Origin: a virus
Lineage: Duplodnaviria > Heunggongvirae > Uroviricota > Caudoviricetes
Length of the DNA stretch: 10,097 nt
Virus record (IMG/VR): IMGVR_UViG_2537561978_000012
Location: 1-10,097 of that record
Direction: 5' to 3' (one strand)
Shown here: piece after piece, positions 1 through 10,097 of the stretch
How the letters are laid out: every line of letters starts with the position of its first letter
How positions within the stretch are numbered: position 1 is the first letter of the stretch
The notes under the pieces: generated by a model
The model's input: only the letters and a program-made list of their open reading frames with translations
The model's database searches: none
Told to the model about the DNA's origin: nothing
Program-made: the position numbers and the translations under genes

Positions 1-189
1 TAGTGCCAGCACGGTTTCTGGTCCGGTCAGAAATTTGAAGGCGTTGAGCGCATCAATATCCACACCGTAATCCTTAAGTTCCTGTTCACTTAACAAATCA
101 TCATCAACTGGCAACATTAACAGGCGTTCCATTGCCGGAATTGCACGTTCTGCCGCCTCACGCAGTGCCTGATAATTAATTTCGCTCAC
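1..189 (-). CDS. Partial ORF running off the left edge; Ea22-like N-terminus (tentative)
   Basis: Minus-strand frame is open from a GTG at 189..187 to position 1 (63 codons, no stop). GGAGGA Shine-Dalgarno lies about 8 nt upstream, and the GTG overlaps the TGA stop of the upstream gene (GTGA). Translation begins VSEINYQALREAAERAIPAMERLL, which resembles my recollection of the lambda Ea22 N-terminus. Not in the ORF track because it is incomplete. Confidence 0.4.
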   Translation of the reverse strand, partial: MSEINYQALREAAERAIPAMERLLMLPVDDDLLSEQELKDYGVDIDALNAFKFLTGPETVLAL

Positions 190-410
190 TCTTCATCCTC
201 CAAGTCGGCAACGGCGTCCATCACATCAGAACCGCGAATAACCTCAAAAGCACGGCAGGCCATTTGAAATACCAGTTGCTCTTGCGGGTGAGGAGACTCC
301 CAATATTTGAAGCCTGGGCGATGCGTGTACCCCATCATTGAATAAAAATCACCAGCAAGCTTAATCGCGGCATCGACAAGCTCTCTGTTAGTCATTCTTT
401 TTCCGCTCAC
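186..410 (-). CDS. Hypothetical small phage protein (74 aa)
   Basis: Complete ORF in the track. Start codon is GTG at 410..408, preceded by a strong AAGGAGG Shine-Dalgarno about 8 nt upstream. Lies in a same-strand run of small genes; no family recognised. Confidence 0.5.
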   Translation of the reverse strand: MSGKRMTNRELVDAAIKLAGDFYSMMGYTHRPGFKYWESPHPQEQLVFQMACRAFEVIRGSDVMDAVADLEDEE

Positions 411-702
411 TGGCTGCCTCCTTTACTGGGCTTTCGAATGTATCAAACTCAAACAACTTAACTACGTCATCAAACAGGACATAATCGCCATCAGAATCTT
501 CAGTCATGTCAGCGCCACAATCCTGACCGAACGAGTCACAACCATCCATATCAAGCTCGTATCGCTTGAGTTTTGCGATATTTGATAAATTCAGCGCCAG
601 TACAGCAAGGTCATAAACCTCATCAGCGGTATACCCGGCACCATGCCCATACATTTCAATACGGGATATGATTTCTTCTACACGTTGTTTTGTGATCGTC
701 AT
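388..702 (-). CDS. Hypothetical strongly acidic protein (104 aa)
   Basis: ATG at 702..700 overlaps the TGA stop of the upstream gene (ATGA). By my count about 24 Asp/Glu against about 11 Lys/Arg, with an acidic C-terminal half (DMTEDSDGDYVLFDDVVKLFEFDTFE). No family recognised. Confidence 0.55.
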   Translation of the reverse strand: MTITKQRVEEIISRIEMYGHGAGYTADEVYDLAVLALNLSNIAKLKRYELDMDGCDSFGQDCGADMTEDSDGDYVLFDDVVKLFEFDTFESPVKEAASERKKND

Positions 703-1115
703 TTTTGCTCACCTTCCTGTTCTTCCAGAAAAATACGCATAGCCTCAAGCATCTCTTCGGTGTCATACGGAGACAGCTTGTCACGCAGGATGTGTTCAAT
801 GCTGTTAATGAACTTGCGGATTGCTTTGCGTTCAATTTCAGCCAGGAAAGCGTCGGTGGCTGGGGTTTCCGTGAAGTTGTCCTCCCAACCGTAGTACTCC
901 TGACGACAGAAGTTATTAAATTCCTTCTCCGACTGTTTAAGCCCAGCATTCTCCGCTGCCAGCGCATTAGCACGCACCAGTTGCACTTCCAGTTGCGTTG
1001 CCAAATAGCTGATCAGCTTTGCCACACTGCGCATATCAACGGCACCACATTCTGCTTTCAGTTCCGAAGCCATCTCATGCCCGGCGGCAACTAACCCTTT
1101 GATATTACTTTCCAT
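699..1115 (-). CDS. Hypothetical phage protein (138 aa), probably alpha-helical / coiled-coil
   Basis: ATG at 1115..1113 with a GAGGG Shine-Dalgarno 6-7 nt upstream; stop overlaps the next start. Sequence is rich in A/E/L/K heptad-like stretches. No family recognised. Confidence 0.6.
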   Translation of the reverse strand: MESNIKGLVAAGHEMASELKAECGAVDMRSVAKLISYLATQLEVQLVRANALAAENAGLKQSEKEFNNFCRQEYYGWEDNFTETPATDAFLAEIERKAIRKFINSIEHILRDKLSPYDTEEMLEAMRIFLEEQEGEQK

Positions 1116-1176
1116 CTTTACCCTCGCTTATCCACATAACTTATTGATTACATTGATAACTAAAAAGATCGTCGAT

Positions 1177-1521
1177 TCAGAACTCTTCGATGTTCCAGCC
1201 GCCACCTGCTTTCTTTGGTTTAACCGTTACCCCGATGATTCGGAACGGATACTGATCTGCGGCTACTTTGGTTTTCACTCTGGCGTCGTCGGTCCAGAAA
1301 CCTTTCACTTCGTGCAGTTCCATCTCTCCGGTGGCGAGCATCACAGCGAAATCGGGCGTATAGAACGTGTTGTCAGCTAACCGCAGCTTAATACCCTCGA
1401 ATAGATACCAGGCGATTTCCCCTGCACGTTTACGCTGCTCAAGGTGCTGGCAATACGCAGATTCTGTTTTGTTCATCTGGCCTGTTTTGAGTCGACCAAG
1501 AGCCTGTATCTGTTTTCTCAT
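1177..1521 (-). CDS. DUF1064-like PD-(D/E)XK-fold protein (putative nin-region nuclease)
   Basis: ATG at 1521..1519. An AGAGG Shine-Dalgarno sits inside the operator palindrome at 1525-1539. Protein has a PD...E.HEVKG arrangement (YTPDF ... ELHEVKG) typical of small PD-(D/E)XK nucleases; overall resembles the about 115 aa DUF1064 phage proteins as I recall them. Confidence 0.55.
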   Translation of the reverse strand: MRKQIQALGRLKTGQMNKTESAYCQHLEQRKRAGEIAWYLFEGIKLRLADNTFYTPDFAVMLATGEMELHEVKGFWTDDARVKTKVAADQYPFRIIGVTVKPKKAGGGWNIEEF

Positions 1522-1524
1522 GAT

Positions 1525-1601
1525 TTACCTCTAAGGTAATTAAAAACCACATAAGACACGAAATCAATAGAGTTTAGAATATTTTATTACCTCACAGGTA
1601 A
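1525..1601 (-). promoter_or_regulatory. Operator pair plus candidate leftward promoter for the nin-like operon
   Basis: Two perfect TTACC-N5-GGTAA palindromes at 1525-1539 (TTACCTCTAAGGTAA) and 1587-1601 (TTACCTCACAGGTAA), 62 bp centre to centre. On the minus strand a TAAAAT -10-like hexamer immediately follows the 1587-1601 site, and a TTGATT / TTTAAT pair lies between the sites. The 1525-1539 site covers the Shine-Dalgarno and abuts the ATG at 1521. Confidence 0.55.
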
Positions 1602-1611
1602 TTATCGAGAC

Positions 1612-1633
1612 GTAAAAAAATGCGCTATCGCGC
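1612..1633 (-). terminator. Weak intrinsic-terminator-like element downstream of the P-like gene
   Basis: On the minus strand, immediately after the stop at 1641..1639: GCGC-GATA-GCGC hairpin (4 bp GC stem) followed by a T7 run (plus-strand A7 at 1614-1620). Stem is short, so strength is doubtful. Confidence 0.3.
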
Positions 1634-1638
1634 TGGTA

Positions 1639-2415
1639 TTACTTGATAAATCCTGCCGCCTTTCCCCGCCTGTATTCCTCCATCAGCCACTGCGCCGGTG
1701 TTATTCCCCCAAGGGTGGCGGCGTTAGGCATGCACCCGAAACTTCGCCCTGGTGGATGGTAAACGTCTCTCCCTGTGTCCGGAGGCGTACTCATGGGTTC
1801 TGGCTTTGCCTGTATGCTGATCACCGGATCCGGTATCTGCTGTCCGGAAGCCACCTTTTTCGCCCAATCATCGAGCAGCCTGCGCGCGTGTTTCTCAACC
1901 TCAATCTCGCTAAGCTGGCGCTGATACATTGCACGGCGGGTATCACATACGACCCAGTACATAACCGGATGTCGCCACGGGAATCTTTCGGGACCACCAG
2001 GATATAAACTTTTTTCCTTGCTGTACCGGTGAAACTCCGCCATCACATCGTCAATGGTGACGCCAAGAACCATCTTGCTGTCTTTACACCACTTGATGAA
2101 TTGCCCTGGCGACGGCCAGAACGGAGACTCACTGGCGCGGGCGTGGCGCATACCAGCGTTAACCTGTTCCATTGTAGTGATCCCATTCTCCAGAAACGCA
2201 AGCATCCATTGCTTACGGAATTCATTAAGTTTGTTCTGCTCCCTTATGGTCGAAACGCTTGCGGGAAATGCAGCCTGTAACTGGACAAATAGTTCATTGA
2301 AAATTCTAGCGACCTGCTCCTTTTTGCCATTGCTGTCACGCCGCTCTTCATGCACAGCAACACCATGCTCACGTAAGCGATCGTACTCATTGAGAAGTTC
2401 TGGAGTTGATTTCAT
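1639..2415 (-). CDS. Lambda P-like replication protein (DnaB helicase loader)
   Basis: 258 aa. Long collinear similarity to lambda P as I recall it: AAFPASV...NEFRKQWMLAFLENGITTMEQVNAGMRHAR...PFWPSPGQFIKWCKD versus lambda ATFPASL...NEIRRQWVLAFRENGITTMEQVNAGMRVAR...PFLPSPGQFVAWCRE. ATG at 2415..2413 with an AAGGGG Shine-Dalgarno; start overlaps the 3' end of the upstream O-like gene. Confidence 0.85.
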   Translation of the reverse strand: MKSTPELLNEYDRLREHGVAVHEERRDSNGKKEQVARIFNELFVQLQAAFPASVSTIREQNKLNEFRKQWMLAFLENGITTMEQVNAGMRHARASESPFWPSPGQFIKWCKDSKMVLGVTIDDVMAEFHRYSKEKSLYPGGPERFPWRHPVMYWVVCDTRRAMYQRQLSEIEVEKHARRLLDDWAKKVASGQQIPDPVISIQAKPEPMSTPPDTGRDVYHPPGRSFGCMPNAATLGGITPAQWLMEEYRRGKAAGFIK

Positions 2416-3217
2416 CCCACACCCCTTCTATCCAGTCAGTGTTATTCCAGTCAAGCTCATCGCTTTTCCCGGCGTTTTTTGATTTTCCCCTGATATGATT
2501 TACGTGCCTGGCGAATTTTTGTTCCCACTGAACCTGCGTGAACACTTTGCCCTCAGCCATCCAGTAATCCCGGAATGCAGCAAGTTCAGCAGGTGTAAAT
2601 TCCGGTTCCGGCAGGGCCGTTCCCCACAGCGCAGCACGCCGTCGAAAATCCGGCGACGGATGCCAGCCATCGGTCATCGGAAATTTCCCGATGGGTTCAC
2701 TCAGGCCATCCAGAAATTCAGGTTCAGCCACCTGCAACGGCATACCGTTCGCTTCACTGGTCGGAGCACCCTCGCGCACGTGCGCTATGTGTGGGGTTTT
2801 ATATATATCTTCCTCTTCCTCTTCCTCTGGTAACTCCTTTTGTAACGCTGTTGGCGTTACTTTTTGCGTTACTCGTTTTCGATGCTCTGCCACTCTTCTA
2901 TTCGTAAGTGCACGTTTTTTCGATGATTCTCCATTGTGTCGCTCAAAGTTTGGAAGAATTAGTTTGCCGTCATGATAAGCAAGCCATCCGACGCTAATGA
3001 GGGCGTCAGCAAATCCTGTAATAAAAGCGAGTCTATCAAGTACTCCTTTTGTAACGCTGCCAGCGTTACCGTCTATTGTTTGCTGGTCAGCCCATGCCCA
3101 TATACGAACCAGCTTTCCAAGAACAGCATCTGGATCAATACCCAGAATTTCTGCTATCTGAAAAATTTCAGGTTTATCAGGAGTGATAACTTCAACCTTA
3201 ATCCAGCTGCTTGCCAT
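2387..3217 (-). CDS. O-like replication initiator (HTH N-terminus, acidic linker, DnaT-like C-terminus; tentative)
   Basis: Track ORF is 2387..3235 beginning at a GTG. I prefer the ATG at 3217..3215 (MASSWIKVEV...) because GAGGGG lies about 7 nt upstream. Sits immediately upstream of and overlapping the P-like gene, carries an EEEEEE linker and internal iteron-like DNA repeats. Not similar in sequence to lambda O; assignment rests on position and architecture. Confidence 0.65.
   Translation of the reverse strand: MASSWIKVEVITPDKPEIFQIAEILGIDPDAVLGKLVRIWAWADQQTIDGNAGSVTKGVLDRLAFITGFADALISVGWLAYHDGKLILPNFERHNGESSKKRALTNRRVAEHRKRVTQKVTPTALQKELPEEEEEEDIYKTPHIAHVREGAPTSEANGMPLQVAEPEFLDGLSEPIGKFPMTDGWHPSPDFRRRAALWGTALPEPEFTPAELAAFRDYWMAEGKVFTQVQWEQKFARHVNHIRGKSKNAGKSDELDWNNTDWIEGVWDEINSRTSQ
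2797..3069. repeat. Iteron-like repeat array inside the O-like gene (candidate replication origin)
   Basis: Two perfect 19-bp palindromes GTAACGC-N5-GCGTTAC at 2842-2860 and 3051-3069, each preceded by the identical 18-mer ACTCCTTTTGTAACGCTG (2833-2850 and 3042-3059). Extra GCGTTAC half-site at 2866-2872; CGTTTT(TT)CGATG direct repeats at 2874-2884 and 2913-2925; (TA)-rich tract TTTTATATATAT at 2797-2808; (CTTCCT)3 at 2809-2826. Confidence 0.5.
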
Positions 3218-3410
3218 AGGTTTCCCCTCTTGCACTCTTTAGTGCACAAGCAAATTCATTACGATGGCGGTTGGCGCTATTCATTGCACATTCAACACAT
3301 GTTCCGTTCAGAACATACCTTTCAGAGAGATGGCCGTGACGGCACCGCTTTCCTGTGAAATAGCGATTTAACCCGGCTTTTGCGGCCTCCATTCTGGTTA
3401 CTATCTTCAA
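3198..3410 (-). CDS. Small zinc-ribbon-like protein at the cII position (hypothetical)
   Basis: Track ORF starts at a TTG (3410..3408) with an AAGAGG Shine-Dalgarno about 9 nt upstream; alternative ATG at 3392..3390 (MEAAKAG...) has no obvious Shine-Dalgarno. Contains C-x-H-x-H ... C-x2-C (KRCRHGH...CVEC). Its 3' end overlaps the O-like start region. No similarity to lambda CII noted. Confidence 0.45.
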   Translation of the reverse strand: MKIVTRMEAAKAGLNRYFTGKRCRHGHLSERYVLNGTCVECAMNSANRHRNEFACALKSARGETYGKQLD

Positions 3411-3517
3411 TTTTTCCGCCTCTTTTTGTTATTGATATTGGCTATTTTGCACAATTGGAAAATTTGATCAACCAGATTTGGTTTTTTATTACCTTTGAGG
3501 TACGAATAGATATGAAA

Positions 3518-3537
3518 AGACCGCCGGGTGGCGGTCT
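3518..3537 (-). terminator. tR1-position hairpin (possible partial terminator / attenuator)
   Basis: Perfect 8-bp stem AGACCGCC / GGCGGTCT with loop GGGT, located between the Cro-like gene end (3559) and the zinc-ribbon gene. On the minus strand it is followed by TTTCATATC, a weak U-tract. No T-run on the plus strand. Confidence 0.35.
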
Positions 3538-3558
3538 ACAGAGGGTTGTAGCTGGATA

Positions 3559-3789
3559 TCATGAGTAGAAGAAGTATGCCAGTTCTGCTTTTGAGCGCAG
3601 CCATTGTCTTGTTTTACAGGCTTTAAAAAGCCCATTCATCAATACTTTACCTGGCATTTTGCGCTTACCTGTTAAGTGAGTCTGGATATAGTGACTCGTC
3701 GTTCCGGCTTCCTGTGCGAAGGCTTCACGCTCATCCGGAGTAAGTGCAAGCCAGTGCTTTTTGAAATCGAAATGTCCGTTATCGCTCAT
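3559..3789 (-). CDS. Cro-like small HTH regulator
   Basis: 76 aa; ATG at 3789..3787. First gene leftward from the divergent operator region, facing the repressor gene. Predicted helix-turn-helix around EAFAQEAGTTSHYIQTHLTGKR. Position and size match a Cro analogue; no direct similarity to lambda Cro. Confidence 0.55.
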   Translation of the reverse strand: MSDNGHFDFKKHWLALTPDEREAFAQEAGTTSHYIQTHLTGKRKMPGKVLMNGLFKACKTRQWLRSKAELAYFFYS

Positions 3790-3821
3790 AGCTATTGCCT
3801 GATATTTATTTCAGATAATAA

Positions 3822-3888
3822 ATATTCACCCATAAGGTAACAAAAATCAAGGATAGTTACCTATGAGGTGCATTTACCTGTTGGGTAA
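3822..3888. promoter_or_regulatory. OR-like tripartite operator with divergent promoters
   Basis: Site C 3874-3888 TTACCTGTTGGGTAA (perfect); site B 3857-3871 TTACCTATGAGGTGC (left half perfect, right half 3/5); site A 3826-3840 TCACCCATAAGGTAA (one mismatch). Candidate leftward promoter on the minus strand: -35 TTGATT (plus 3845-3850), 17-bp spacer, -10 GAATAT (plus 3822-3827), with site A inside the spacer/-10. The rightward repressor promoter is not confidently located; TAATAT at 3886-3891 is a candidate -10. Confidence 0.6.
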
Positions 3889-3943
3889 TATTGCTTTAAA
3901 TTGAATCATCTACTGATTCATATATGAGGCGATTTTCCAGAAA

Positions 3944-4528
3944 ATGAAAAGTATCCAGGACGTCCGCAGGCAAAATCTCAACGACTTGATCGACCGTGAA
4001 TTCAATGGTGTTCAGACGCGGATGGCAGAAAAACTTGGAACTCAGGCAAATCTGGTAAACCGCTGGGCTCTTGGCAAGAAGGTTATCGGCGACCAGGTTG
4101 CGCGAAAAATTGAAGCTGCCGCCAATAAACCCCGTAACTGGCTTGATATCGATCGCTCGCTTTCTCAGGAGGGGTTTCAGCCTGTCGGCCCAAGCGACAT
4201 TGGTCAGCTGGCGGCTCACAACCTGGAACGCTGGATGAGCGAAAGCCGCGACCTTTCAACGCAGGGAAAACTACACCGCGCATCCGGCGTCGCCCAGGTG
4301 ACAATCAGCCGCCTGTTAAACAATGAAGTCAGCGTTTCCATTTCCACCCTAGAGAATGTTGCATCCGCATTCGGGCGTCACGGCTATGAATTACTGATTC
4401 ACCCGCACGACCCTGCGACTATCAACTATGACCGCTCGCGCTACGCATTGTTACCCGAAACAGAGAAGGCAAAGATCGAAAGTTACATTGAATTTGTCAT
4501 CAGCCAGAACGAAAGAAGCAAACAATAA
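3944..4528 (+). CDS. Prophage repressor, CI-position, dual helix-turn-helix, no S24 peptidase domain
   Basis: 194 aa. First ATG of the frame at 3944, in-frame stop upstream at 3914-3916, no convincing Shine-Dalgarno. Two HTH-like segments: MAEKLGTQANLVNRWALGKK (N-terminal) and LHRASGVAQVTISRLLNNEVSVSISTL (C-terminal). No Ala-Gly / Ser...Lys autocleavage module evident. Divergent from the Cro-like gene, followed by a terminator and then the pL-like promoter, i.e. the lambda cI layout. Confidence 0.7.
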   Translation: MKSIQDVRRQNLNDLIDREFNGVQTRMAEKLGTQANLVNRWALGKKVIGDQVARKIEAAANKPRNWLDIDRSLSQEGFQPVGPSDIGQLAAHNLERWMSESRDLSTQGKLHRASGVAQVTISRLLNNEVSVSISTLENVASAFGRHGYELLIHPHDPATINYDRSRYALLPETEKAKIESYIEFVISQNERSKQ

Positions 4529-4548
4529 AACTATAGTTTTCAGTAAGT

Positions 4549-4573
4549 AAGCCGCCTCATGGCGGCTTTTTTA
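4549..4573 (+). terminator. Rho-independent terminator after the repressor gene (tImm-like)
   Basis: AAGCCGCC-TCAT-GGCGGCTT hairpin (GC-rich 6-8 bp stem) followed directly by a T-run at 4567-4572, 21 nt after the TAA stop at 4526-4528. Confidence 0.75.
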
Positions 4574-4585
4574 TTGCCAACAAGA

Positions 4586-4662
4586 TTACCTTATGGGTAA
4601 TTTTTTTAACTCATATCTATTGACATCAAACCAAATACGCATAATTATTACCTCAACGGTAA
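4586..4662 (+). promoter_or_regulatory. pL-like early promoter flanked by two perfect operators
   Basis: Perfect palindromes at 4586-4600 (TTACCTTATGGGTAA) and 4648-4662 (TTACCTCAACGGTAA). Between them a consensus -35 TTGACA at 4620-4625 and an A/T-rich -10 candidate (AATTAT, 4643-4648) after a 17-bp spacer. The downstream site overlaps the -10 and start region. Confidence 0.65.
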
Positions 4663-4681
4663 CAGACCGAGGTAACAAGTT

Positions 4682-4834
4682 ATGCAGTGGAAAATCATCA
4701 ACGGTTGGTACTGCGTTACTGCATGCGGATTCATGAGCTGGAAGTTCCGCACCTTACAGGAAGGCATTAAGTGGGCTTTCGTCAGCAAAGAAGCTCGCGA
4801 TGTGGCCAACGATAACGAGATATGGGAGGGCTGA
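4682..4834 (+). CDS. Untracked small ORF (50 aa), first gene of the pL-like operon
   Basis: ATG at 4682 preceded by GAGGT at 4669-4673 (8-nt spacing); TGA at 4832-4834, two nucleotides before the next ATG. Hand translation: MQWKIINGWYCVTACGFMSWKFRTLQEGIKWAFVSKEARDVANDNEIWEG. Missing from the track only because it is shorter than the shortest listed ORF. Not Arg-rich, so not N-like. Confidence 0.4.
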   Translation: MQWKIINGWYCVTACGFMSWKFRTLQEGIKWAFVSKEARDVANDNEIWEG

Positions 4835-4836
4835 TA

Positions 4837-5136
4837 ATGAACGTTAATCAGCAGAAAAATCTTCAAAAAATCATGCTGGCATTCGACAAGGACTACCGCC
4901 TGTCAGAACAGCTATATGACCGACAAGTTGAACTGATTGAGAGCATCCGACTTCATCAACTGTCCTCAACTTTCGACGTTGTAACAGGCAAAGGCGTTCG
5001 TCAGGAAGTGCTGGAGGCTGCTAAAGACAGCCCTGAGTTCGAAGAACTGATGGATTCCTACCGGCGCGAGGCAATGGCAATTATAGCGCGCTGGGATCTG
5101 GCGGATCAGCTTGATGGGCAGAGGGAAGCGGCATGA
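4837..5136 (+). CDS. Hypothetical protein (99 aa) immediately upstream of the exonuclease
   Basis: Track ORF 4822..5136 begins at a non-ATG codon; ATG at 4837 (MNVNQQ...) follows a GGGAGGG Shine-Dalgarno. Stop overlaps the exonuclease start (ATGA at 5133-5136). No family recognised. Confidence 0.6.
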   Translation: MNVNQQKNLQKIMLAFDKDYRLSEQLYDRQVELIESIRLHQLSSTFDVVTGKGVRQEVLEAAKDSPEFEELMDSYRREAMAIIARWDLADQLDGQREAA

Positions 5137-5954
5137 AACCGGGAATTTATTTCGACATCAGCAACGAAGACTACCACGCCGGTGACGGCGTGAGTAAGTC
5201 GCAACTGGACATGGTTGCCAAGAATCCGGCGCTTCTTAAATGGGTTCAGGCAGCACCAGAAGACGAAGAGAAAAAGTCTGCACTGGATATGGGAACCGCA
5301 TTGCACTGTCTGCTTCTGGAGCCTGGAGAATTCGACAAACGCTTCATTGTTTCACCGAAGTTCGATCGTCGGACGAAACAAGGTAAAGCTGACGAAGAGG
5401 CATTTCTTCGTGATGTGGCGGATATGGGGATTACGGTACTTGATGCCGAGCAGTGGCGGAAACTGGAGCTGATGCGTGATAGCGCAATGGCTCACCCGGC
5501 GGCACGCTGGATGTTGGAAGCACCTGGTTACTGCGAAGCGTCAATGTACTGGAACGATGAAGAAACGGGTGAGTTGTGCCGAATTCGTCCAGACAAATGG
5601 CTGAACGAGCACAACGTGATCATCGACGTGAAAAAGGTTGCAGATATGGACCGTTTTGCACGTCACATCGAGGAATTCCGCTACCACGTGCAGGACGCAA
5701 TGTACCGCGAAGGCGCAATGAGGGTTACTGGTCAGCCGCATGGTTTTTTCTTTCTTGCCGTGAGCGAAAGCATTGATTGTGGTCGGTATCCGGTACGCGT
5801 GTTCGAGCTGGATGCGCCGGATGTCGATGCCGGGCACGCTCTGTTCCGCCGGGATCTGAATACCTATCACGAATGCCGCATCAACGATGAGTGGGGCGGA
5901 GTGGAAATTATTAAACGCCCTGACTGGGCACGTAAACAGGATATGTACGTATGA
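5133..5954 (+). CDS. RecE-like PD-(D/E)XK 5'-3' exonuclease (exonuclease VIII-like domain)
   Basis: 273 aa; nuclease motif arrangement RPD ... IIDVKK (D ... D-x-K). Sits directly upstream of, and is translationally coupled to, the annealase (ATGA overlap at 5951-5954). Not similar to lambda Exo as I recall it. Confidence 0.7.
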   Translation: MKPGIYFDISNEDYHAGDGVSKSQLDMVAKNPALLKWVQAAPEDEEKKSALDMGTALHCLLLEPGEFDKRFIVSPKFDRRTKQGKADEEAFLRDVADMGITVLDAEQWRKLELMRDSAMAHPAARWMLEAPGYCEASMYWNDEETGELCRIRPDKWLNEHNVIIDVKKVADMDRFARHIEEFRYHVQDAMYREGAMRVTGQPHGFFFLAVSESIDCGRYPVRVFELDAPDVDAGHALFRRDLNTYHECRINDEWGGVEIIKRPDWARKQDMYV

Positions 5955-6832
5955 GCAATGATATCGCAATCACATCACAACCAGGCGCAACTGTAGGCAC
6001 TGCTGCGGCAATCTTCAGCCCCGAGGGAATGAATCAACTGGTGCGTTTCGCTGAGTTGATGTCACAAAGCAAAGCGACTGTACCGAAACATCTTGAAGGC
6101 AAACCTGCCGATTGCCTGGCGGTGACCATGCAGGCGGCACAGTGGGGAATGAACCCTTTCGCCGTGGCGCAGAAAACGCATGTGGTAAACGGAACGTTAG
6201 GCTACGAAGCACAGTTGGTAAACGCGGTCGTATCCTCGTCAAGCCTGCTGGCGACACGCCTGAATTATCGCTGGAGCGGTGACTGGTCGAATGTTAACGG
6301 CAAAACAGATAAATCACCGAATCTGACGGTAACTGTGTCAGCAGTTCTTAAAGGAGAAGCAGAACCACGTGAGCTTACCATCAGTATGGCGCAAGCCGGA
6401 GTGCGTAACTCTCCATTGTGGGAACAGGATCCTCGCCAGCAGCTTGCCTATCTTTGCACGAAACGATGGGCTCGCCTGCACGCTCCTGATGTACTTCTCG
6501 GTGTTTACACCCCTGACGAATTACAGGAAACGGCACCGCGCGTTGAACGAGACATTACTCCGCAAACAACTACTGCTGCGGGAATGAACAGTCTGATCAA
6601 CGCTAAACCAGTGAAAAAGCCTGATGAGCAAACGCGTAAAGCGGATAGCCGTGATCCAGAAGAAATGCTGATGGCCTTTACCAGCGCAGCGATGAATTAC
6701 AGCACTGTCTCCGAACTGGATAAGGCTTACAAATACATTGCACAAAAACTTTCAGATGATGACGAACTGCTGGCAAAAGCAACCGACGTTTACAGCGTTC
6801 GTCGGGAAGAATTAAACGAAACATCTATGTAA
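5951..6832 (+). CDS. Bet/Red-beta-family single-strand annealing protein
   Basis: 293 aa. Collinear matches to lambda Bet as I recall it: AAQWGMNPF versus ANQYGLNPW, and PRVERDITP versus QPERDITP, with a similar hydrophobic core between. Confidence 0.75.
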   Translation: MSNDIAITSQPGATVGTAAAIFSPEGMNQLVRFAELMSQSKATVPKHLEGKPADCLAVTMQAAQWGMNPFAVAQKTHVVNGTLGYEAQLVNAVVSSSSLLATRLNYRWSGDWSNVNGKTDKSPNLTVTVSAVLKGEAEPRELTISMAQAGVRNSPLWEQDPRQQLAYLCTKRWARLHAPDVLLGVYTPDELQETAPRVERDITPQTTTAAGMNSLINAKPVKKPDEQTRKADSRDPEEMLMAFTSAAMNYSTVSELDKAYKYIAQKLSDDDELLAKATDVYSVRREELNETSM

Positions 6833-6881
6833 CCACCACCGCGGCGCCACACGCGCCGCACTGCAACCAAGAGAGGTATTT

Positions 6882-7130
6882 ATGAAAGGTGCATTAGGTA
6901 AGAAGGAACTCCTGGCGGTGGTGCCACTGTCATGGAGCACTATCGACCGTATGGAGCGCGCAGGGGAATTTCCTAAACGCTGGTATATCACTGACAAACG
7001 CTGCGCATGGAACCGTGACGAAGTTGAGCGTTGGCTTGATGAACGTCAGGCAGCAAGTCCGGCAGAGTTCCAGGGTAAAAAACCTCCTGTTCAGCAACGT
7101 GTATATCGTCCCGTGAGCAACGCTGCATGA
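6882..7130 (+). CDS. AlpA-family small HTH protein (excisionase / regulator-like)
   Basis: 82 aa; ATG at 6882 with AGAGG about 6 nt upstream. Sequence pattern LSWSTIDRMERAGEFPKRWYI...AWNRDEVERWL is typical of AlpA/Xis-type MerR-like HTH proteins that accompany P4-type integrases. Confidence 0.7.
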   Translation: MKGALGKKELLAVVPLSWSTIDRMERAGEFPKRWYITDKRCAWNRDEVERWLDERQAASPAEFQGKKPPVQQRVYRPVSNAA

Positions 7131-7239
7131 GTGCGCTGCTAAGGCACTGGAGCAAATGGTCAGGATGGTACTTATTCCTGGCCTCTGTTTCAGCATGGCT
7201 TTATCTGCTGGCATTAATTTTCAGAGAGGGTTGGATTAA

Positions 7240-7539
7240 GTGAGAAAGTTAAGCCGACTTGAAAAATATCACATGAATAAGGTTTCAATGCGTAGTCCGT
7301 CAAAGATTGTCGCCGTTACTCCTGCGGCGATAGAGATCGAAAAACGCGCGATTGAAAGAGAAAAAAAAGGGCAGTTCCGCATTGCCGCTCACCTTTGGCT
7401 TCAGTGTATGGATGTTGCTTCTGGTGATGTTGAGCGAGCAAGGATTGCGGTTCGCAGGGACCAATGTATCACAAAAGGTAACGGCCTTCGCCGTGGCGAC
7501 TATAGCGGCATAGGATGTTGTGGGGTGGTTTATGACTAA
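7240..7539 (+). CDS. PerC-like small regulator (tentative); start uncertain
   Basis: Track ORF begins at GTG 7240; alternative ATGs at 7273 and 7288, the latter with AAGG 5 nt upstream. Core EKKGQFRIAAHLWLQCMDV...ERARIAVRRDQC resembles the PerC-family pattern as I remember it. 3' end overlaps the methyltransferase start by 8 nt. Confidence 0.4.
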   Translation: MRKLSRLEKYHMNKVSMRSPSKIVAVTPAAIEIEKRAIEREKKGQFRIAAHLWLQCMDVASGDVERARIAVRRDQCITKGNGLRRGDYSGIGCCGVVYD

Positions 7540-8182
7540 GAAATACACACTAATCTATGCAGATCCACCCTGGGTATACCGGGACAAAGCCGCAGATGGT
7601 AATCGCGGTGCCGGTTTTAAATATCCGGTTATGAGTGTGCTTGATATCTGCCGCCTTCCTGTGTGGGATTTGGCCGATGAAAACTGTCTGTTGGCCATGT
7701 GGTGGGTGCCAACACAACCACTCGAAGCACTAAAAGTTGTTGAAGCCTGGGGATTCCGTCTGATGACCATGAAGGGCTTCACGTGGATAAAATGTGGTAG
7801 TCGACAACAAGATAAACTGGTTATGGGTATGGGTCACATGACTCGCGCCAATAGTGAAGATTGCCTGTTTGCAGTAAAGGGAAAACTACCTCCGCGCATT
7901 AATGCAGGGATCGTTCAGTCATTTACCGCACCGCGGCTTGAGCATTCAAGAAAACCAGATGTCGTTCGTGAAAAACTTGTGCAATTGTTAGGCGATGTTT
8001 CTCGCATTGAACTGTTCGCCCGCCAGTCGTCTCATGGCTTCGATGTTTGGGGTAATCAGTGCGAAGACCCGGCAGTGCAACTACACCCTGGATACGCGTT
8101 GGCTATTGGCGGATTAACAAATGCATTCAGCAATGCTCCGCTGTCACCAACAGACAACCAGGGGCGGGAGCGTTCAGCATGA
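7532..8182 (+). CDS. MT-A70-family N6-adenine DNA methyltransferase (orphan)
   Basis: Track ORF starts at GTG 7520; I prefer ATG 7532 ([14 protein letters not shown]...). Catalytic DPPW motif near the N-terminus. No adjacent restriction endonuclease candidate. TGA stop overlaps the phosphatase start (ATGA at 8179-8182). Confidence 0.8.
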
Positions 8183-8838
8183 ACCTATATCAACGCATCA
8201 ATGGCGCTGACTGGTGCAATATCTTCGTCGTCGGCGATCTGCATGGGTGCTACACGCTGCTGATGAACGAACTCGACAAAGTTTCATTCGACCCGGCGCG
8301 CGATTTGCTTATTTCCGTTGGTGACCTTGTTGACCGCGGCGCTGAAAACGTCGAATGCCTGGATTTGATTACTATGCCGTGGTTCCGAGCTGTTCGTGGC
8401 AACCATGAGCAGATGATGCTGGATGCACTGGTCAACGGCGGAAGTTTCGGACATTGGATGTCAAACGGCGGTGGATGGTGGCGCCAACTTGATTCTGAGC
8501 AGGATGTGCAACTCAAATACCTTCTGCCAAAGGTTACCAACCTCCCGATGATTATCGAACTGGTTACCGGCAATAAGAAGGTCGTCATCTGCCACGCAGA
8601 CTACCCCCACAACGAATACGCATTCGATAAGCCAGTACCGGAAGAAATGGTGATATGGAATCGTGAGCGGGTTAGCGACGCGCAGGACGGTATTGTCTCG
8701 GAGATAACCGGTGCCGATTTGTTCATCTTCGGTCATACGCCAGCACATCACCCACTAGTGTATGCAAACCAGATGTACATCGACACCGGCGCAGTGTTCT
8801 GCGGAAATCTGACGCTTACCAAAGTCCAGGAAGGATAG
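8179..8838 (+). CDS. Lambda-type Ser/Thr protein phosphatase (metallophosphoesterase)
   Basis: Track ORF starts upstream at 8059, but homology begins at ATG 8179 ([12 protein letters not shown]...). Signature motifs GDLHG, GDLVDRG and GNHE are present, and similarity to lambda phosphatase (as I recall it) runs end to end, including the C-terminal [13 protein letters not shown]. Confidence 0.9.
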
Positions 8839-8840
8839 AA

Positions 8841-10097
8841 TTATTTATTACTGTCTTCCATCCACTTCTCAAACTTCGACGGGGAGAACGGAATCAGATC
8901 CGTATGCTCCCCGTTAATCCAGGAATCAATCATATCGGCCCACTGCTGCAACATGTAGGCGCGCTGTCTGGCGTATTCCGCTTTGTTATATACGGCGCGC
9001 ACACCTTTCTGCTCATGTGCCAGAGCCTTTTCAATCCAGTCTGAAGGATAACCAGCCTCATGCAACAACGTACTGGCTGTACGGCGCATATCATGTACAG
9101 TGAAGTCCTGAATATACTCACCATCTTCATTTATTATTTTCACCGTTCTGTCGATCAGAGAGTTCAGTGCGGCATTAGATAATGGCTTCCGGAAATTGTA
9201 ACGACCAGGAACCAGATATTCACTTCCACCAGCGCACATCTGCAACCCAACCAATATATCCTGTGCCTGTTTTGGCAGGTAAATAACGTGCGCCCGGCTT
9301 CCCTTCATGCGGTCTGAAGGAATTGTCCATGTCCATTTTTTAAAATCTATTTCGTCCCACGTTGCATTGGTGAATTCGCCTTTACGAACCATAGTGATAA
9401 GCACCAGTTTTAAAGCCATTTTCATAGTGCCCATAGCACCAATGGCATCCAGCGTGCGGAAGAAAAGACCAATTTCTTCTGGTGTCAGCGTTCGCTCTCG
9501 TGGTTTAAATATGGCGATAGACGAAGGCTTAATATCAGCCGCAGGATTAAACAAACCATGACCGCGGTCATTGGCGTGACGGTATACGCTGCTGATGATC
9601 TCCCTGGCCTGCACTGCTGTTGCCCGGCCACCGCGTTCGACAATCCGGTCACACAAATCACGAACCATCGATGTGGTAATTTCAGCCATCATTTTGTTGC
9701 CAAGAACCGGAAGTATGTCACGGTCGATCACCGCCTGCTTCATTGCGCGGGTACTGTCAGCCAGGATGACGTGTTTCATATAACTGTCGGTATGTACCGC
9801 AAACGTCTCGGCACCACGAATCTTTTTGATACCGTCACGTTTAGCCGCAGCCGGCGACTGGCCTGCTTTAAGCAACTTCTTTGCAGCAATCAGTTCTTCC
9901 CGCGCTTCTGCCAGGCTGATACCGTCACGCCCATACTGCCCGATTACCAGTGTTTCGCGGCGACCGTTGATACGGTAGTCATAGCGAAACGAGACCGTAC
10001 CTGACGTAAGCACAGCTACATACAGCCCGTCACGATCGGAGACCTTGTACAGTTTGTCCTGCGGCTTGAGGTTTTTTAATTTTGTATCGGTAAGCAC
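8841..10097 (-). CDS. int: P4-type tyrosine integrase; N-terminus at or just beyond the right window edge
   Basis: 418 aa. N-terminal LTDTKLKNLKP...YKVSDRDGLYV...FRYDYRINGRRETL is typical of the arm-binding domain of P4-family integrases. C-terminal catalytic region includes HDMRRT and a Tyr-containing tail (RAVYNKAEY). First codon in the window is GTG at 10097..10095, so the true start may lie just outside. Convergent with the phosphatase gene, 2-nt gap. Confidence 0.9.
   Translation of the reverse strand: MLTDTKLKNLKPQDKLYKVSDRDGLYVAVLTSGTVSFRYDYRINGRRETLVIGQYGRDGISLAEAREELIAAKKLLKAGQSPAAAKRDGIKKIRGAETFAVHTDSYMKHVILADSTRAMKQAVIDRDILPVLGNKMMAEITTSMVRDLCDRIVERGGRATAVQAREIISSVYRHANDRGHGLFNPAADIKPSSIAIFKPRERTLTPEEIGLFFRTLDAIGAMGTMKMALKLVLITMVRKGEFTNATWDEIDFKKWTWTIPSDRMKGSRAHVIYLPKQAQDILVGLQMCAGGSEYLVPGRYNFRKPLSNAALNSLIDRTVKIINEDGEYIQDFTVHDMRRTASTLLHEAGYPSDWIEKALAHEQKGVRAVYNKAEYARQRAYMLQQWADMIDSWINGEHTDLIPFSPSKFEKWMEDSNK

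Follow-up and report, generated by a model that had tools for sequence, protein, structure and literature searches.

A lambda-type phosphatase gene as exchangeable cargo next to an MT-A70 methyltransferase gene in phiV10-like prophages of Escherichia coli

INTRODUCTION

Lambda phosphatase (NinI, orf221; PDB 1G5B) is a textbook enzyme, for which phosphodiesterase side activities have been reported as well. Its gene, which overlaps its neighbours, is located in the rightward nin region of the phage lambda genome, in the order NinE-NinI-NinG. In lambda, ninI was scored as non-essential and showed no plating phenotype (PMC10695390).

Among MT-A70 methyltransferases of temperate phages, M.EcoPA8orf6770P of the Stx2a phage PA8 has been studied both biochemically and genetically. 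This enzyme carries a DPPW motif, is encoded near the integrase end of the phage, and is said to resemble M.EcoGV of E. coli O104:H4 closely (PMC10810198). Alone it has little activity; a preference for 16S rRNA is gained with PNB-2, the product of an upstream ATGA-coupled gene and a true subunit of the enzyme, for which the C-terminal tail of the methyltransferase was proposed to be the binding part (PMC10810198). Thus, ATGA coupling can mark a complex. When overproduced, the Stx-phage enzyme is reported to act on GATC in DNA (PMC10810198); M.EcoGV is given as GATC-specific on DNA in REBASE-derived tables (PMC6602927). A Stx phage with an IS629-disrupted homologous methyltransferase gene still formed inducible lysogens (PMC10810198).

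In PA8 the methyltransferase gene is followed by a DUF1382 gene, and the same is true for phiV10 (NC_007804), the type phage of Uetakevirus. Here we consider a locus in which a methyltransferase gene of this kind is followed by a gene for a lambda-type phosphatase. The window, as we call the whole stretch of DNA analyzed, has 10,097 nt (IMG/VR record IMGVR_UViG_2537561978_000012).

RESULTS

The methyltransferase and phosphatase genes reside in a phiV10-like (Uetakevirus) prophage of E. coli. Positions 6800-10097 of the window were 98.4% identical to Escherichia phage vB_EcoP_PAS61 (OQ921333; Uetakevirus) and 98.1% identical to phage BP9, while positions 7240-8838 were found with 100% identity in the chromosome of E. 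coli ST95-32 (NZ_CP043950). All three share with the window the gene order alpA, small ORF, perC, methyltransferase, phosphatase, convergent integrase; there was no difference of substance, and we consider them to be the same element. The exact two-gene arrangement is already on record, in RefSeq and in the annotation of PAS61, and both genes are members of well-known families. The name of the methyltransferase varies between these three records (adenine DNA methyltransferase, MT-A70 family methyltransferase or N6-adenosine-specific RNA methylase IME4); the phosphatase appears as a serine/threonine protein phosphatase, called NinI in PAS61.

The plus-strand ORF at 7532-8182 (ATG to TGA, 216 aa) codes for an MT-A70 family N6-adenine methyltransferase. 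Its product matched the Pfam MT-A70 model (PF05063) over model positions 1-172 of 172 (E-value 2.1e-22; 80.3 bits, with gathering cut-off 23.9) as well as PHROG 359 (E-value 1.1e-119). The DPPW motif, residues 11-14 within YADPPWVY (residues 9-16), aligned with the DPPW of Tetrahymena MT-A70 structures; METTL3 structures matched the same region, residues 4-167. The gene is intact and under purifying selection (pN/pS 0.17 in 74 copies), and ∼10% of complete E. coli genomes encode this enzyme. No restriction endonuclease gene was recognised by Pfam, PHROG or PADLOC among the ORFs of the 10 kb window, the sizeable ones all falling under other phage functions or into families whose function is not known; thus, the methyltransferase is an orphan within these 10 kb, as the first-pass annotation had called it. 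Of the proteins scanned with PADLOC, it (Type II MTase model) and the DGQHR protein (DndB) of SPN1S were the sole matches; there was none for the phosphatase, for the PerC-like protein encoded upstream, for DUF1382 or for the third type of cargo described below.

The first-pass annotation had held the suggested co-function to be uncharacterised. This is correct in part: lambda phosphatase is well studied, and so is M.EcoPA8orf6770P, to which 155 of 187 residues (83%) of the methyltransferase core (residues 1-187) are identical. The C-terminal tails, the last ∼29 residues here versus ∼21 in the PA8 enzyme, are unrelated. By tblastn, neither PNB-2, nor PNB-1, which accompanies it in PA8, nor DUF1382 was found in the window. 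The place of the PA8 partner is taken by a plus-strand gene for a small PerC/ANR-like regulator (7240-7539; Pfam PerC, E-value 6e-07; PHROG 868, E-value 5.7e-62; NCBIfam ANR_neg_reg, below cut-off), whose end is overlapped by the methyltransferase start by 8 bases, a detail absent from the first-pass annotation. We could not support the claim that the PerC-like protein is an equivalent of PNB-2, as no alignment between the two was obtained.

One could speculate that the methyltransferase acts mainly on 16S rRNA with the help of a nucleic-acid-binding partner, as in PA8, and that the PerC/ANR-like protein is this partner. The core identity, the dependence of the PA8 enzyme on PNB-2 (PMC10810198) and the presence, in all relatives examined, of a gene for a small protein of nucleic-acid-binding type overlapping the methyltransferase start from upstream would agree with such a role. 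We regard it as unlikely: the PNB-2 homologue is missing from the window, the tail proposed to bind it is different, other genes separate PerC and the methyltransferase in SPN1S, in Tyrion and in 5 of 80 E. coli contigs, and the close homologue M.EcoGV is tabulated as acting on GATC in DNA (PMC6602927).

The second gene, on the plus strand at 8179-8838 (ATG to TAG, 219 aa), codes for a NinI-type, Mn-dependent Ser/Thr (dual-specificity) protein phosphatase, so that both gene identities given by the first-pass annotation were borne out. Its product matched Pfam Metallophos (E-value 1.1e-15), PHROG 246, ‘NinI-like serine-threonine phosphatase’ (E-value 1.7e-107), and, end to end (1-217 to 1-217), lambda phosphatase 1G5B, a protein of the same length, with 145 of 217 residues identical (67%; E-value 1.2e-99). 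All 10 catalytic and metal-binding positions checked were identical to those of the lambda enzyme. The lambda-type signature consists of GDxHG, GDxVDRG and GNHE together with His139, His186, Arg53 and Arg162 (lambda numbering); the motifs are present here as GDLHG, GDLVDRG and GNHE. The gene was intact in 24 of 24 copies, with pN/pS 0.18; purifying selection acts on it, too.

The chromosomal PrpA/PrpB (PphA/PphB) proteins of E. coli have the same fold family and similar length. The best NCBIfam matches of the phosphatase, NF008516 (score 265.9, cut-off 326) and NF007425 (220.9, cut-off 332), were both below the equivalog cut-off, and, being phage-borne, the phosphatase is not a PrpA/PrpB orthologue. 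We considered whether K-12 matches at 78.8% identity could be chromosomal pphA; this was ruled out, as they are nin-region genes flanked by NinE and NinG, in a prophage-type block running from replication to lysis genes. The nearest homologues (62-79% identity) were mostly located beside NinE and NinG in lambdoid nin regions, where the phosphatase genes overlap both neighbours; in contrast to this location, the copy in the window closes the early-left operon beside the integrase gene of a podovirus-type prophage. In its central segment (aa 81-135) identity to the nearest nin-type copy was 44%, versus 88-93% in the flanks.

As read directly from the bases, the start codon of the phosphatase gene (ATG) and the stop codon of the methyltransferase gene (TGA) overlap in the ATGA at 8179-8182 (plus strand). 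A Shine-Dalgarno-like GGGAG lies inside the methyltransferase coding sequence (8166-8170, plus strand), 8 bases before the phosphatase ATG. After the phosphatase stop codon, a 2-base spacer leads to the convergent gene of a P4-type tyrosine integrase (8841-10097, minus strand; PHROG 1; Pfam Phage_integrase, Arm-DNA-bind_3 and Phage_int_M), which starts at or beyond the window edge; the placement of the pair beside the integrase is confirmed. In the early-left operon (4822-8838) overlaps are the default: six of the seven gene junctions are overlaps of 4 or 8 bases.

Upstream of this operon, a terminator-like hairpin (4549-4568, plus strand) follows the repressor gene (3944-4528), at the place equivalent to that of a terminator annotated in phiV10; in a pattern scan it was the sole plus-strand terminator-like site within 3500-10097. 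A consensus scan returned a promoter-like site, TTGACA-17-AATTAT, at 4620-4648 (plus strand; 10 of 12 consensus positions), which could drive the operon; from there to 8838 the scans returned no other promoter-like or terminator-like site on the plus strand. A ‘moron’ phosphatase gene expressed in the lysogen was also considered and set aside, with no promoter-like site seen in the gene or just before it by a consensus scan that can miss one.

The operon and integrase gene of phiV10 are ∼98% identical to those of the window, and its methyltransferase gene, too, is closed by this overlapping ATGA. At this ATGA, however, a 64-aa DUF1382 gene starts in place of the phosphatase gene. In junction alignments, similarity between phiV10 and the window continues through ATGAAC, breaks off, and restarts at a Met codon of the integrase gene. 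The cassette replacing the DUF1382 segment thus extends over 8185-8857 and includes the body of the phosphatase gene, the 2-base spacer and the last five codons plus stop of the integrase gene; the integrase C-terminus reads KWMEDSNK in the window versus KWMAGE in other variants. Some other relatives have a third type of cargo at the same ATGA, consisting of an 82-aa ORF and, after it, an AntA-like gene. The junction GGAGCGTxCAGC-ATGA-A is common to all three types of cargo, and the equivalent of GGGAG is retained in the DUF1382 and AntA-cargo variants. Behind a conserved prophage methyltransferase gene, the phosphatase gene is, therefore, interchangeable with at least two other types of cargo, with the ATGA also being the left boundary of the exchange.

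The tight coupling had led the first-pass annotation to suggest co-function of the two genes, and had named their not occurring together in related prophages as an outcome that would speak against it. They were found mostly apart, so that the suggestion is not supported. In the methyltransferase-integrase region of 548 complete E. coli genomes DUF1382 was present in 371 (68%) and the phosphatase in ∼143 (∼26%), leaving the methyltransferase gene without the phosphatase gene in ∼74% of related prophages; among 80 IMG/VR sequences the numbers were 52 with DUF1382, 23 with the phosphatase and 5 with other content. No MT-A70 gene was seen within 3 kb of any of 80 phosphatase homologues in species-representative genomes of 80 other species. 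Conserved co-occurrence, as would be expected of an obligate module, was seen neither among the E. coli prophages nor at these 80 loci. The phosphatase allele itself (≥95% identity) occurred in 146 records and together with the methyltransferase gene in 144, so that nearly all of its copies are in one context. The ∼143 genomes with an intact, selected phosphatase show that prophages at least tolerate and keep the combination.

DISCUSSION

We explain the locus as follows, with a probability of roughly 80%. The methyltransferase and phosphatase genes are accessory and independent of each other, and stand last in a phiV10-like early-left operon; the methyltransferase gene is the resident, while NinI came from a lambdoid nin region into a slot where it replaced the commoner DUF1382. 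This slot is delimited by the stop of the methyltransferase gene and by the final integrase codons, and the event is an ordinary mosaic exchange of cargo. The accessory status that the first-pass annotation gave to both genes agrees with the viability of phiV10, which has no phosphatase gene, as well as with the dispensable lambda ninI (PMC10695390) and the tolerated IS629 disruption of a methyltransferase homologue (PMC10810198). Since overlap is the ordinary way of packing phage genes and the cargo is interchangeable, the ATGA overlap is not evidence of joint function.

From the sequence and from homology we infer the transcription unit, the reinitiation and what the two enzymes act on. After induction or infection, transcription would start at the predicted promoter that follows the repressor gene and proceed through the recE-like gene, recT, xis/alpA, a small membrane-protein gene, the perC-like gene, the methyltransferase gene and the cargo gene. 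Ribosomes terminating at the methyltransferase UGA may restart at the overlapping AUG, aided by the internal GGGAG, as predicted from the consensus pattern; by such restarts any cargo in the slot would be expressed. The methyltransferase would produce N6-methyladenine, its target by homology being GATC in DNA and/or 16S rRNA. The phosphatase would act separately, removing phosphate from phosphoproteins of the host or the phage in an Mn2+-dependent manner.

Next to this explanation, the phosphatase could be an independent cargo for counter-defence or competition, an alternative to DUF1382, that reverses Ser/Thr phosphorylation by host immunity kinases (HipA-like, Stk2-like) or by kinases of rival phages (T7 kinase). 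The slot does hold interchangeable accessory genes, and its phosphatase is intact and selected. Furthermore, kinase-based defence and phage kinases disarming defence systems are documented (PMC11341870, PMC13645617), and the methods section of the latter report describes dephosphorylation of T7 kinase by lambda phosphatase in vitro (PMC13645617). But PADLOC did not recognise the phosphatase, lambda ninI had no effect on plating (PMC10695390), the consensus scan gave no promoter suggestive of expression in the lysogen, and the literature searched gave nothing specific on a NinI role in defence or counter-defence, nor an experimental link from NinI to any defence system. Such a function is improbable on this balance. 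More generally, the anti-restriction and anti-kinase roles raised by the first-pass annotation are speculation that would fit every member of both families and is not specific to the pairing.

A broader version seems to us somewhat less probable still: the segment from the methyltransferase stop to the integrase stop would be a dedicated Uetakevirus cargo hotspot whose occupants compete as counter-defence or inter-phage factors, with the phosphatase directed against Ser/Thr-kinase immunity or rival kinases, and with the methyltransferase targeted by an exchangeable upstream neighbour, here the PerC-like protein.

It is quite unlikely that the substrates of the ‘phosphatase’ are nucleotides or RNA ends instead of proteins, in the manner of an Ap4A hydrolase or a 2′,3′-cyclic phosphodiesterase. 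ApaH/PrpE and the phosphatase domain of bacterial Pnkp were matched more weakly, and these matches, along with the side activities of the lambda enzyme, could be cited in favor; however, the matches to lambda protein phosphatase (E-value 1e-99) and to the PrpA/PrpB protein phosphatase models were far better, and those to ApaH were limited to the N-terminal metal-binding motifs.

Least probable of all is a translationally coupled pair working together, e.g. as a two-part counter-defence module or complex; that the genes mostly occur apart goes far to refute it. In its favor, the ATGA overlap does exist, neither gene is disrupted and both are selected, the pair persists in the ∼143 genomes and in isolates PAS61 and BP9, and a related Stx phage has in its ATGA-coupled PNB-2 a genuine subunit of the methyltransferase (PMC10810198), but this known partner is upstream, not downstream, other cargos use the same junction, overlaps are the rule in the operon, and phosphatase homologues elsewhere, normally in nin regions, have no MT-A70 neighbour.

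As it stands, the finding matters little, the pairing being explained by modular exchange at gene boundaries. It carries a negative lesson: where genes of a phage early operon overlap by their stop and start codons, this is no evidence of shared function. A cheap lead for follow-up is this MT-A70 enzyme, whose closest studied relative is claimed to methylate rRNA in dependence on an upstream partner. The use of lambda-type phosphatases to a phage has been a question since the discovery of the enzyme; the natural isogenic variants of the cargo (DUF1382, phosphatase and AntA-type), present in hundreds of E. coli genomes, would permit a clean test of it.

The methyltransferase-phosphatase pair and its setting

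Both genes named in the first-pass annotation, and the overlap between them, were present as written. According to the ORF list and the sequence, the methyltransferase gene runs from ATG to TGA at 7532-8182 (plus strand, 216 aa) and the phosphatase gene from ATG to TAG at 8179-8838 (plus strand, 219 aa); at 8179-8182 the sequence reads ATGA, the phosphatase ATG overlapping the methyltransferase TGA, and a GGGAG motif (8166-8170) lies 8 bases 5′ of this ATG. To this we add that the methyltransferase start overlaps a PerC-like gene (7240-7539) by 8 bases. The family assignments held up as well. For the methyltransferase, the match to Pfam MT-A70 spans the whole model (E = 2.1e-22); the protein also matches PHROG 359 ‘DNA methyltransferase’ (E = 1.1e-119) and has a DPPW motif (YADPPWVY). 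The phosphatase matches Metallophos and PHROG 246 ‘NinI-like serine-threonine phosphatase’ (E = 1.7e-107); its alignment to 1G5B, the lambda protein phosphatase, spans residues 1 to 217 (E = 1.2e-99, 67% identity), and it shares with lambda the residue at each of the 10 metal-ligand, general-acid and phosphate-binding positions checked. The term ‘orphan’ was apt for the methyltransferase, since neither ORF family matches nor PADLOC revealed a recognisable restriction enzyme gene anywhere in the window.

Window positions 6800-10097 share 98.4% identity with Escherichia phage vB_EcoP_PAS61 (Uetakevirus) and, the phosphatase segment excepted, ∼98% with phiV10; positions 7240-8838 match the E. coli ST95-32 chromosome at 100% identity. 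The arrangement is already known: the public records of PAS61 and ST95-32 annotate a methyltransferase and a serine/threonine protein phosphatase (NinI in PAS61), and both families are well known.

Operon organization

The minus strand carries the replication module (186-3410) and a Cro-like gene (3559-3789); on the plus strand the repressor gene (3944-4528), a terminator-like hairpin (4549-4568) and a promoter-like site (4620-4648) precede an uninterrupted gene run, the early-left operon (4822-8838). It encodes, in order, a PHROG 856 protein, RecE-like exonuclease, RecT, an AlpA-type excisionase/regulator, a 38-aa membrane protein, the PerC-like protein, the methyltransferase and the phosphatase. 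A pattern scan found no plus-strand promoter-like or terminator-like site within the run. As start/stop overlaps of 4 or 8 bases occur at 6 of its 7 junctions, the ATGA that joins the methyltransferase to the phosphatase follows the rule of this operon and is no exception. In the window (5133-6832) and in PAS61, RecE-like exonuclease and RecT have a gene each, the two overlapping by ATGA, whereas the phiV10 annotation (L001 1273-3033) gives one fused CDS.

The pair adjoins the integrase, as had been noted: the P4-type tyrosine integrase gene (8841-10097, minus strand) and the operon converge at 8836-8843, where 2 bases separate them and no terminator-like site is present. Transcription continuing past the end of the operon would yield RNA antisense to the integrase, and a regulatory interaction is possible.

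One-sided linkage

Searching 5,426 complete E. coli genomes, we saw the methyltransferase in 548; the gene behind it was DUF1382 in 371 of these and the phosphatase in 143. IMG/VR viral contigs with the methyltransferase (80) had DUF1382 in 52, the phosphatase in 23 and other cargo in 5. On the other hand, the phosphatase allele (≥95% identity) was found in 146 records, essentially all in the methyltransferase-slot context. The linkage is thus one-sided: the phosphatase allele always comes with the methyltransferase, while the methyltransferase is usually without the phosphatase. This agrees with one or few captures in a single phage lineage. Among 80 species-representative loci, none had an MT-A70 gene within 3 kb of a phosphatase homologue.

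The first-pass annotation had read the genes as a coupled, co-functioning pair, perhaps in counter-defence. This proposal fails on its own terms because related prophages do not carry the two together, most of them having no phosphatase. Anti-restriction and anti-kinase roles are conceivable, but such ideas are generic to both families, and the pairing lends them no support; NinI gave no match in the PADLOC scan, and we found no literature linking it to defence or counter-defence. The claim that the phosphatase is accessory stands, because phiV10 lacks it wholly; lambda, too, does not need ninI for plating (PMC10695390).

A possible partner upstream

The core of the methyltransferase, residues 1-187, shares 83% identity with M.EcoPA8orf6770P of Stx2a phage PA8. 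Gong et al. report that this enzyme has little activity by itself, that it binds PNB-2, encoded by the gene upstream, in a 1:1 complex which prefers 16S rRNA as substrate, and that it makes spontaneous prophage induction more frequent (PMC10810198). M.EcoGV, to which it is highly similar, methylates DNA at GATC on overproduction (PMC10810198) and is listed as GATC-specific (PMC6602927). In PA8, a sequence check showed the PNB-2 gene overlapping the methyltransferase start by ATGA. Neither PNB-2 nor PNB-1 was found in the window; unlike in PA8, the overlapping upstream gene is PerC/ANR-like (7240-7539), with no similarity to PNB-2 found, and the C-terminal tail of the methyltransferase, the proposed PNB-2 binder, is unrelated.

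The start of the MT-A70 core is always overlapped by the gene 5′ of it, which encodes a small protein of nucleic-acid-binding type whose family differs by phage: winged-helix PNB-2, an experimentally shown subunit, in PA8 (L004 2851-3282), a winged-helix protein in Uetakevirus Tyrion (L005 2284-2511) and a DndB-like DGQHR protein in Uetakevirus SPN1S (L003 2933-3928), the latter also directly upstream in 5 of 80 E. coli viral contigs. This pattern suggests that the upstream gene may encode an exchangeable targeting subunit. By analogy, the partner of the methyltransferase, if any, would lie upstream rather than be the phosphatase.

Origin of the phosphatase and exchange of cargo

The nearest relatives of the phosphatase outside the lineage reside in lambdoid nin regions, flanked by NinE and NinG; there too the gene overlaps those on either side, by 4 and 8 bases. 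Those in E. coli have 78-88% nucleotide identity to it; amino-acid identity is 62-79% in Enterobacter, Citrobacter, Scandinavium, Atlantibacter and others. Aligned with a NinI from the nin region of a prophage in an E. coli K-12 genome (L007), the protein appears mosaic, with identities of 93% in aa 1-80, 44% in aa 81-135 and 88% in aa 136-219; the middle segment (window 8419-8583) may be a surface region close to the active site that is mosaic or evolves fast. The gene was intact in 24 of 24 copies examined. With pN/pS of 0.18, and 0.17 for the methyltransferase (74 copies), both genes are kept by purifying selection.

In phiV10 the methyltransferase is followed by a 64-aa DUF1382 gene (L001 4380-4574) starting at the same ATGA as the window's phosphatase. 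Position by position, similarity of the window to phiV10 extends up to …GGAGCGTxCAGC-ATGA-AC, is then lost, and returns only at the integrase codon for Met of …KWM; the phosphatase cassette therefore has its own integrase tail. The integrase ends in …KWMEDSNK (418 aa; 8841-8858) in the window but in …KWMAGE (416 aa) where the cargo is DUF1382 or of the AntA type, which places the exchange boundary within the integrase coding sequence. A third cargo (L017 3648-4871; also in L018, L019, L029), with identical left junction, begins at the same ATGA with an 82-aa ORF lacking a family match; an intergenic gap separates this ORF from the next gene, which encodes a 216-aa AntA/AntB-domain antirepressor-like protein. 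A DUF1382 gene also lies 3′ of the MT-A70 gene in PA8 (L004 2056-2268), overlapping its 3′-end by 41 bases rather than by ATGA; occurring in both PA8 and phiV10, this order is widespread across unrelated temperate phages.

Upon induction or infection, the early-left promoter would drive transcription of the whole run. Ribosomes ending the methyltransferase would restart at the overlapping AUG, aided by the conserved GGAG, so any cargo at this junction would be expressed. The methyltransferase would then produce m6A in GATC DNA and/or rRNA, and the phosphatase would independently strip phosphate from host or phage phosphoproteins. Judged from the alignments, the slot between the methyltransferase stop and the integrase 3′-end is a cargo-exchange site. 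One could speculate, as a modest upside, that it may be a hotspot for counter-defence cargo.
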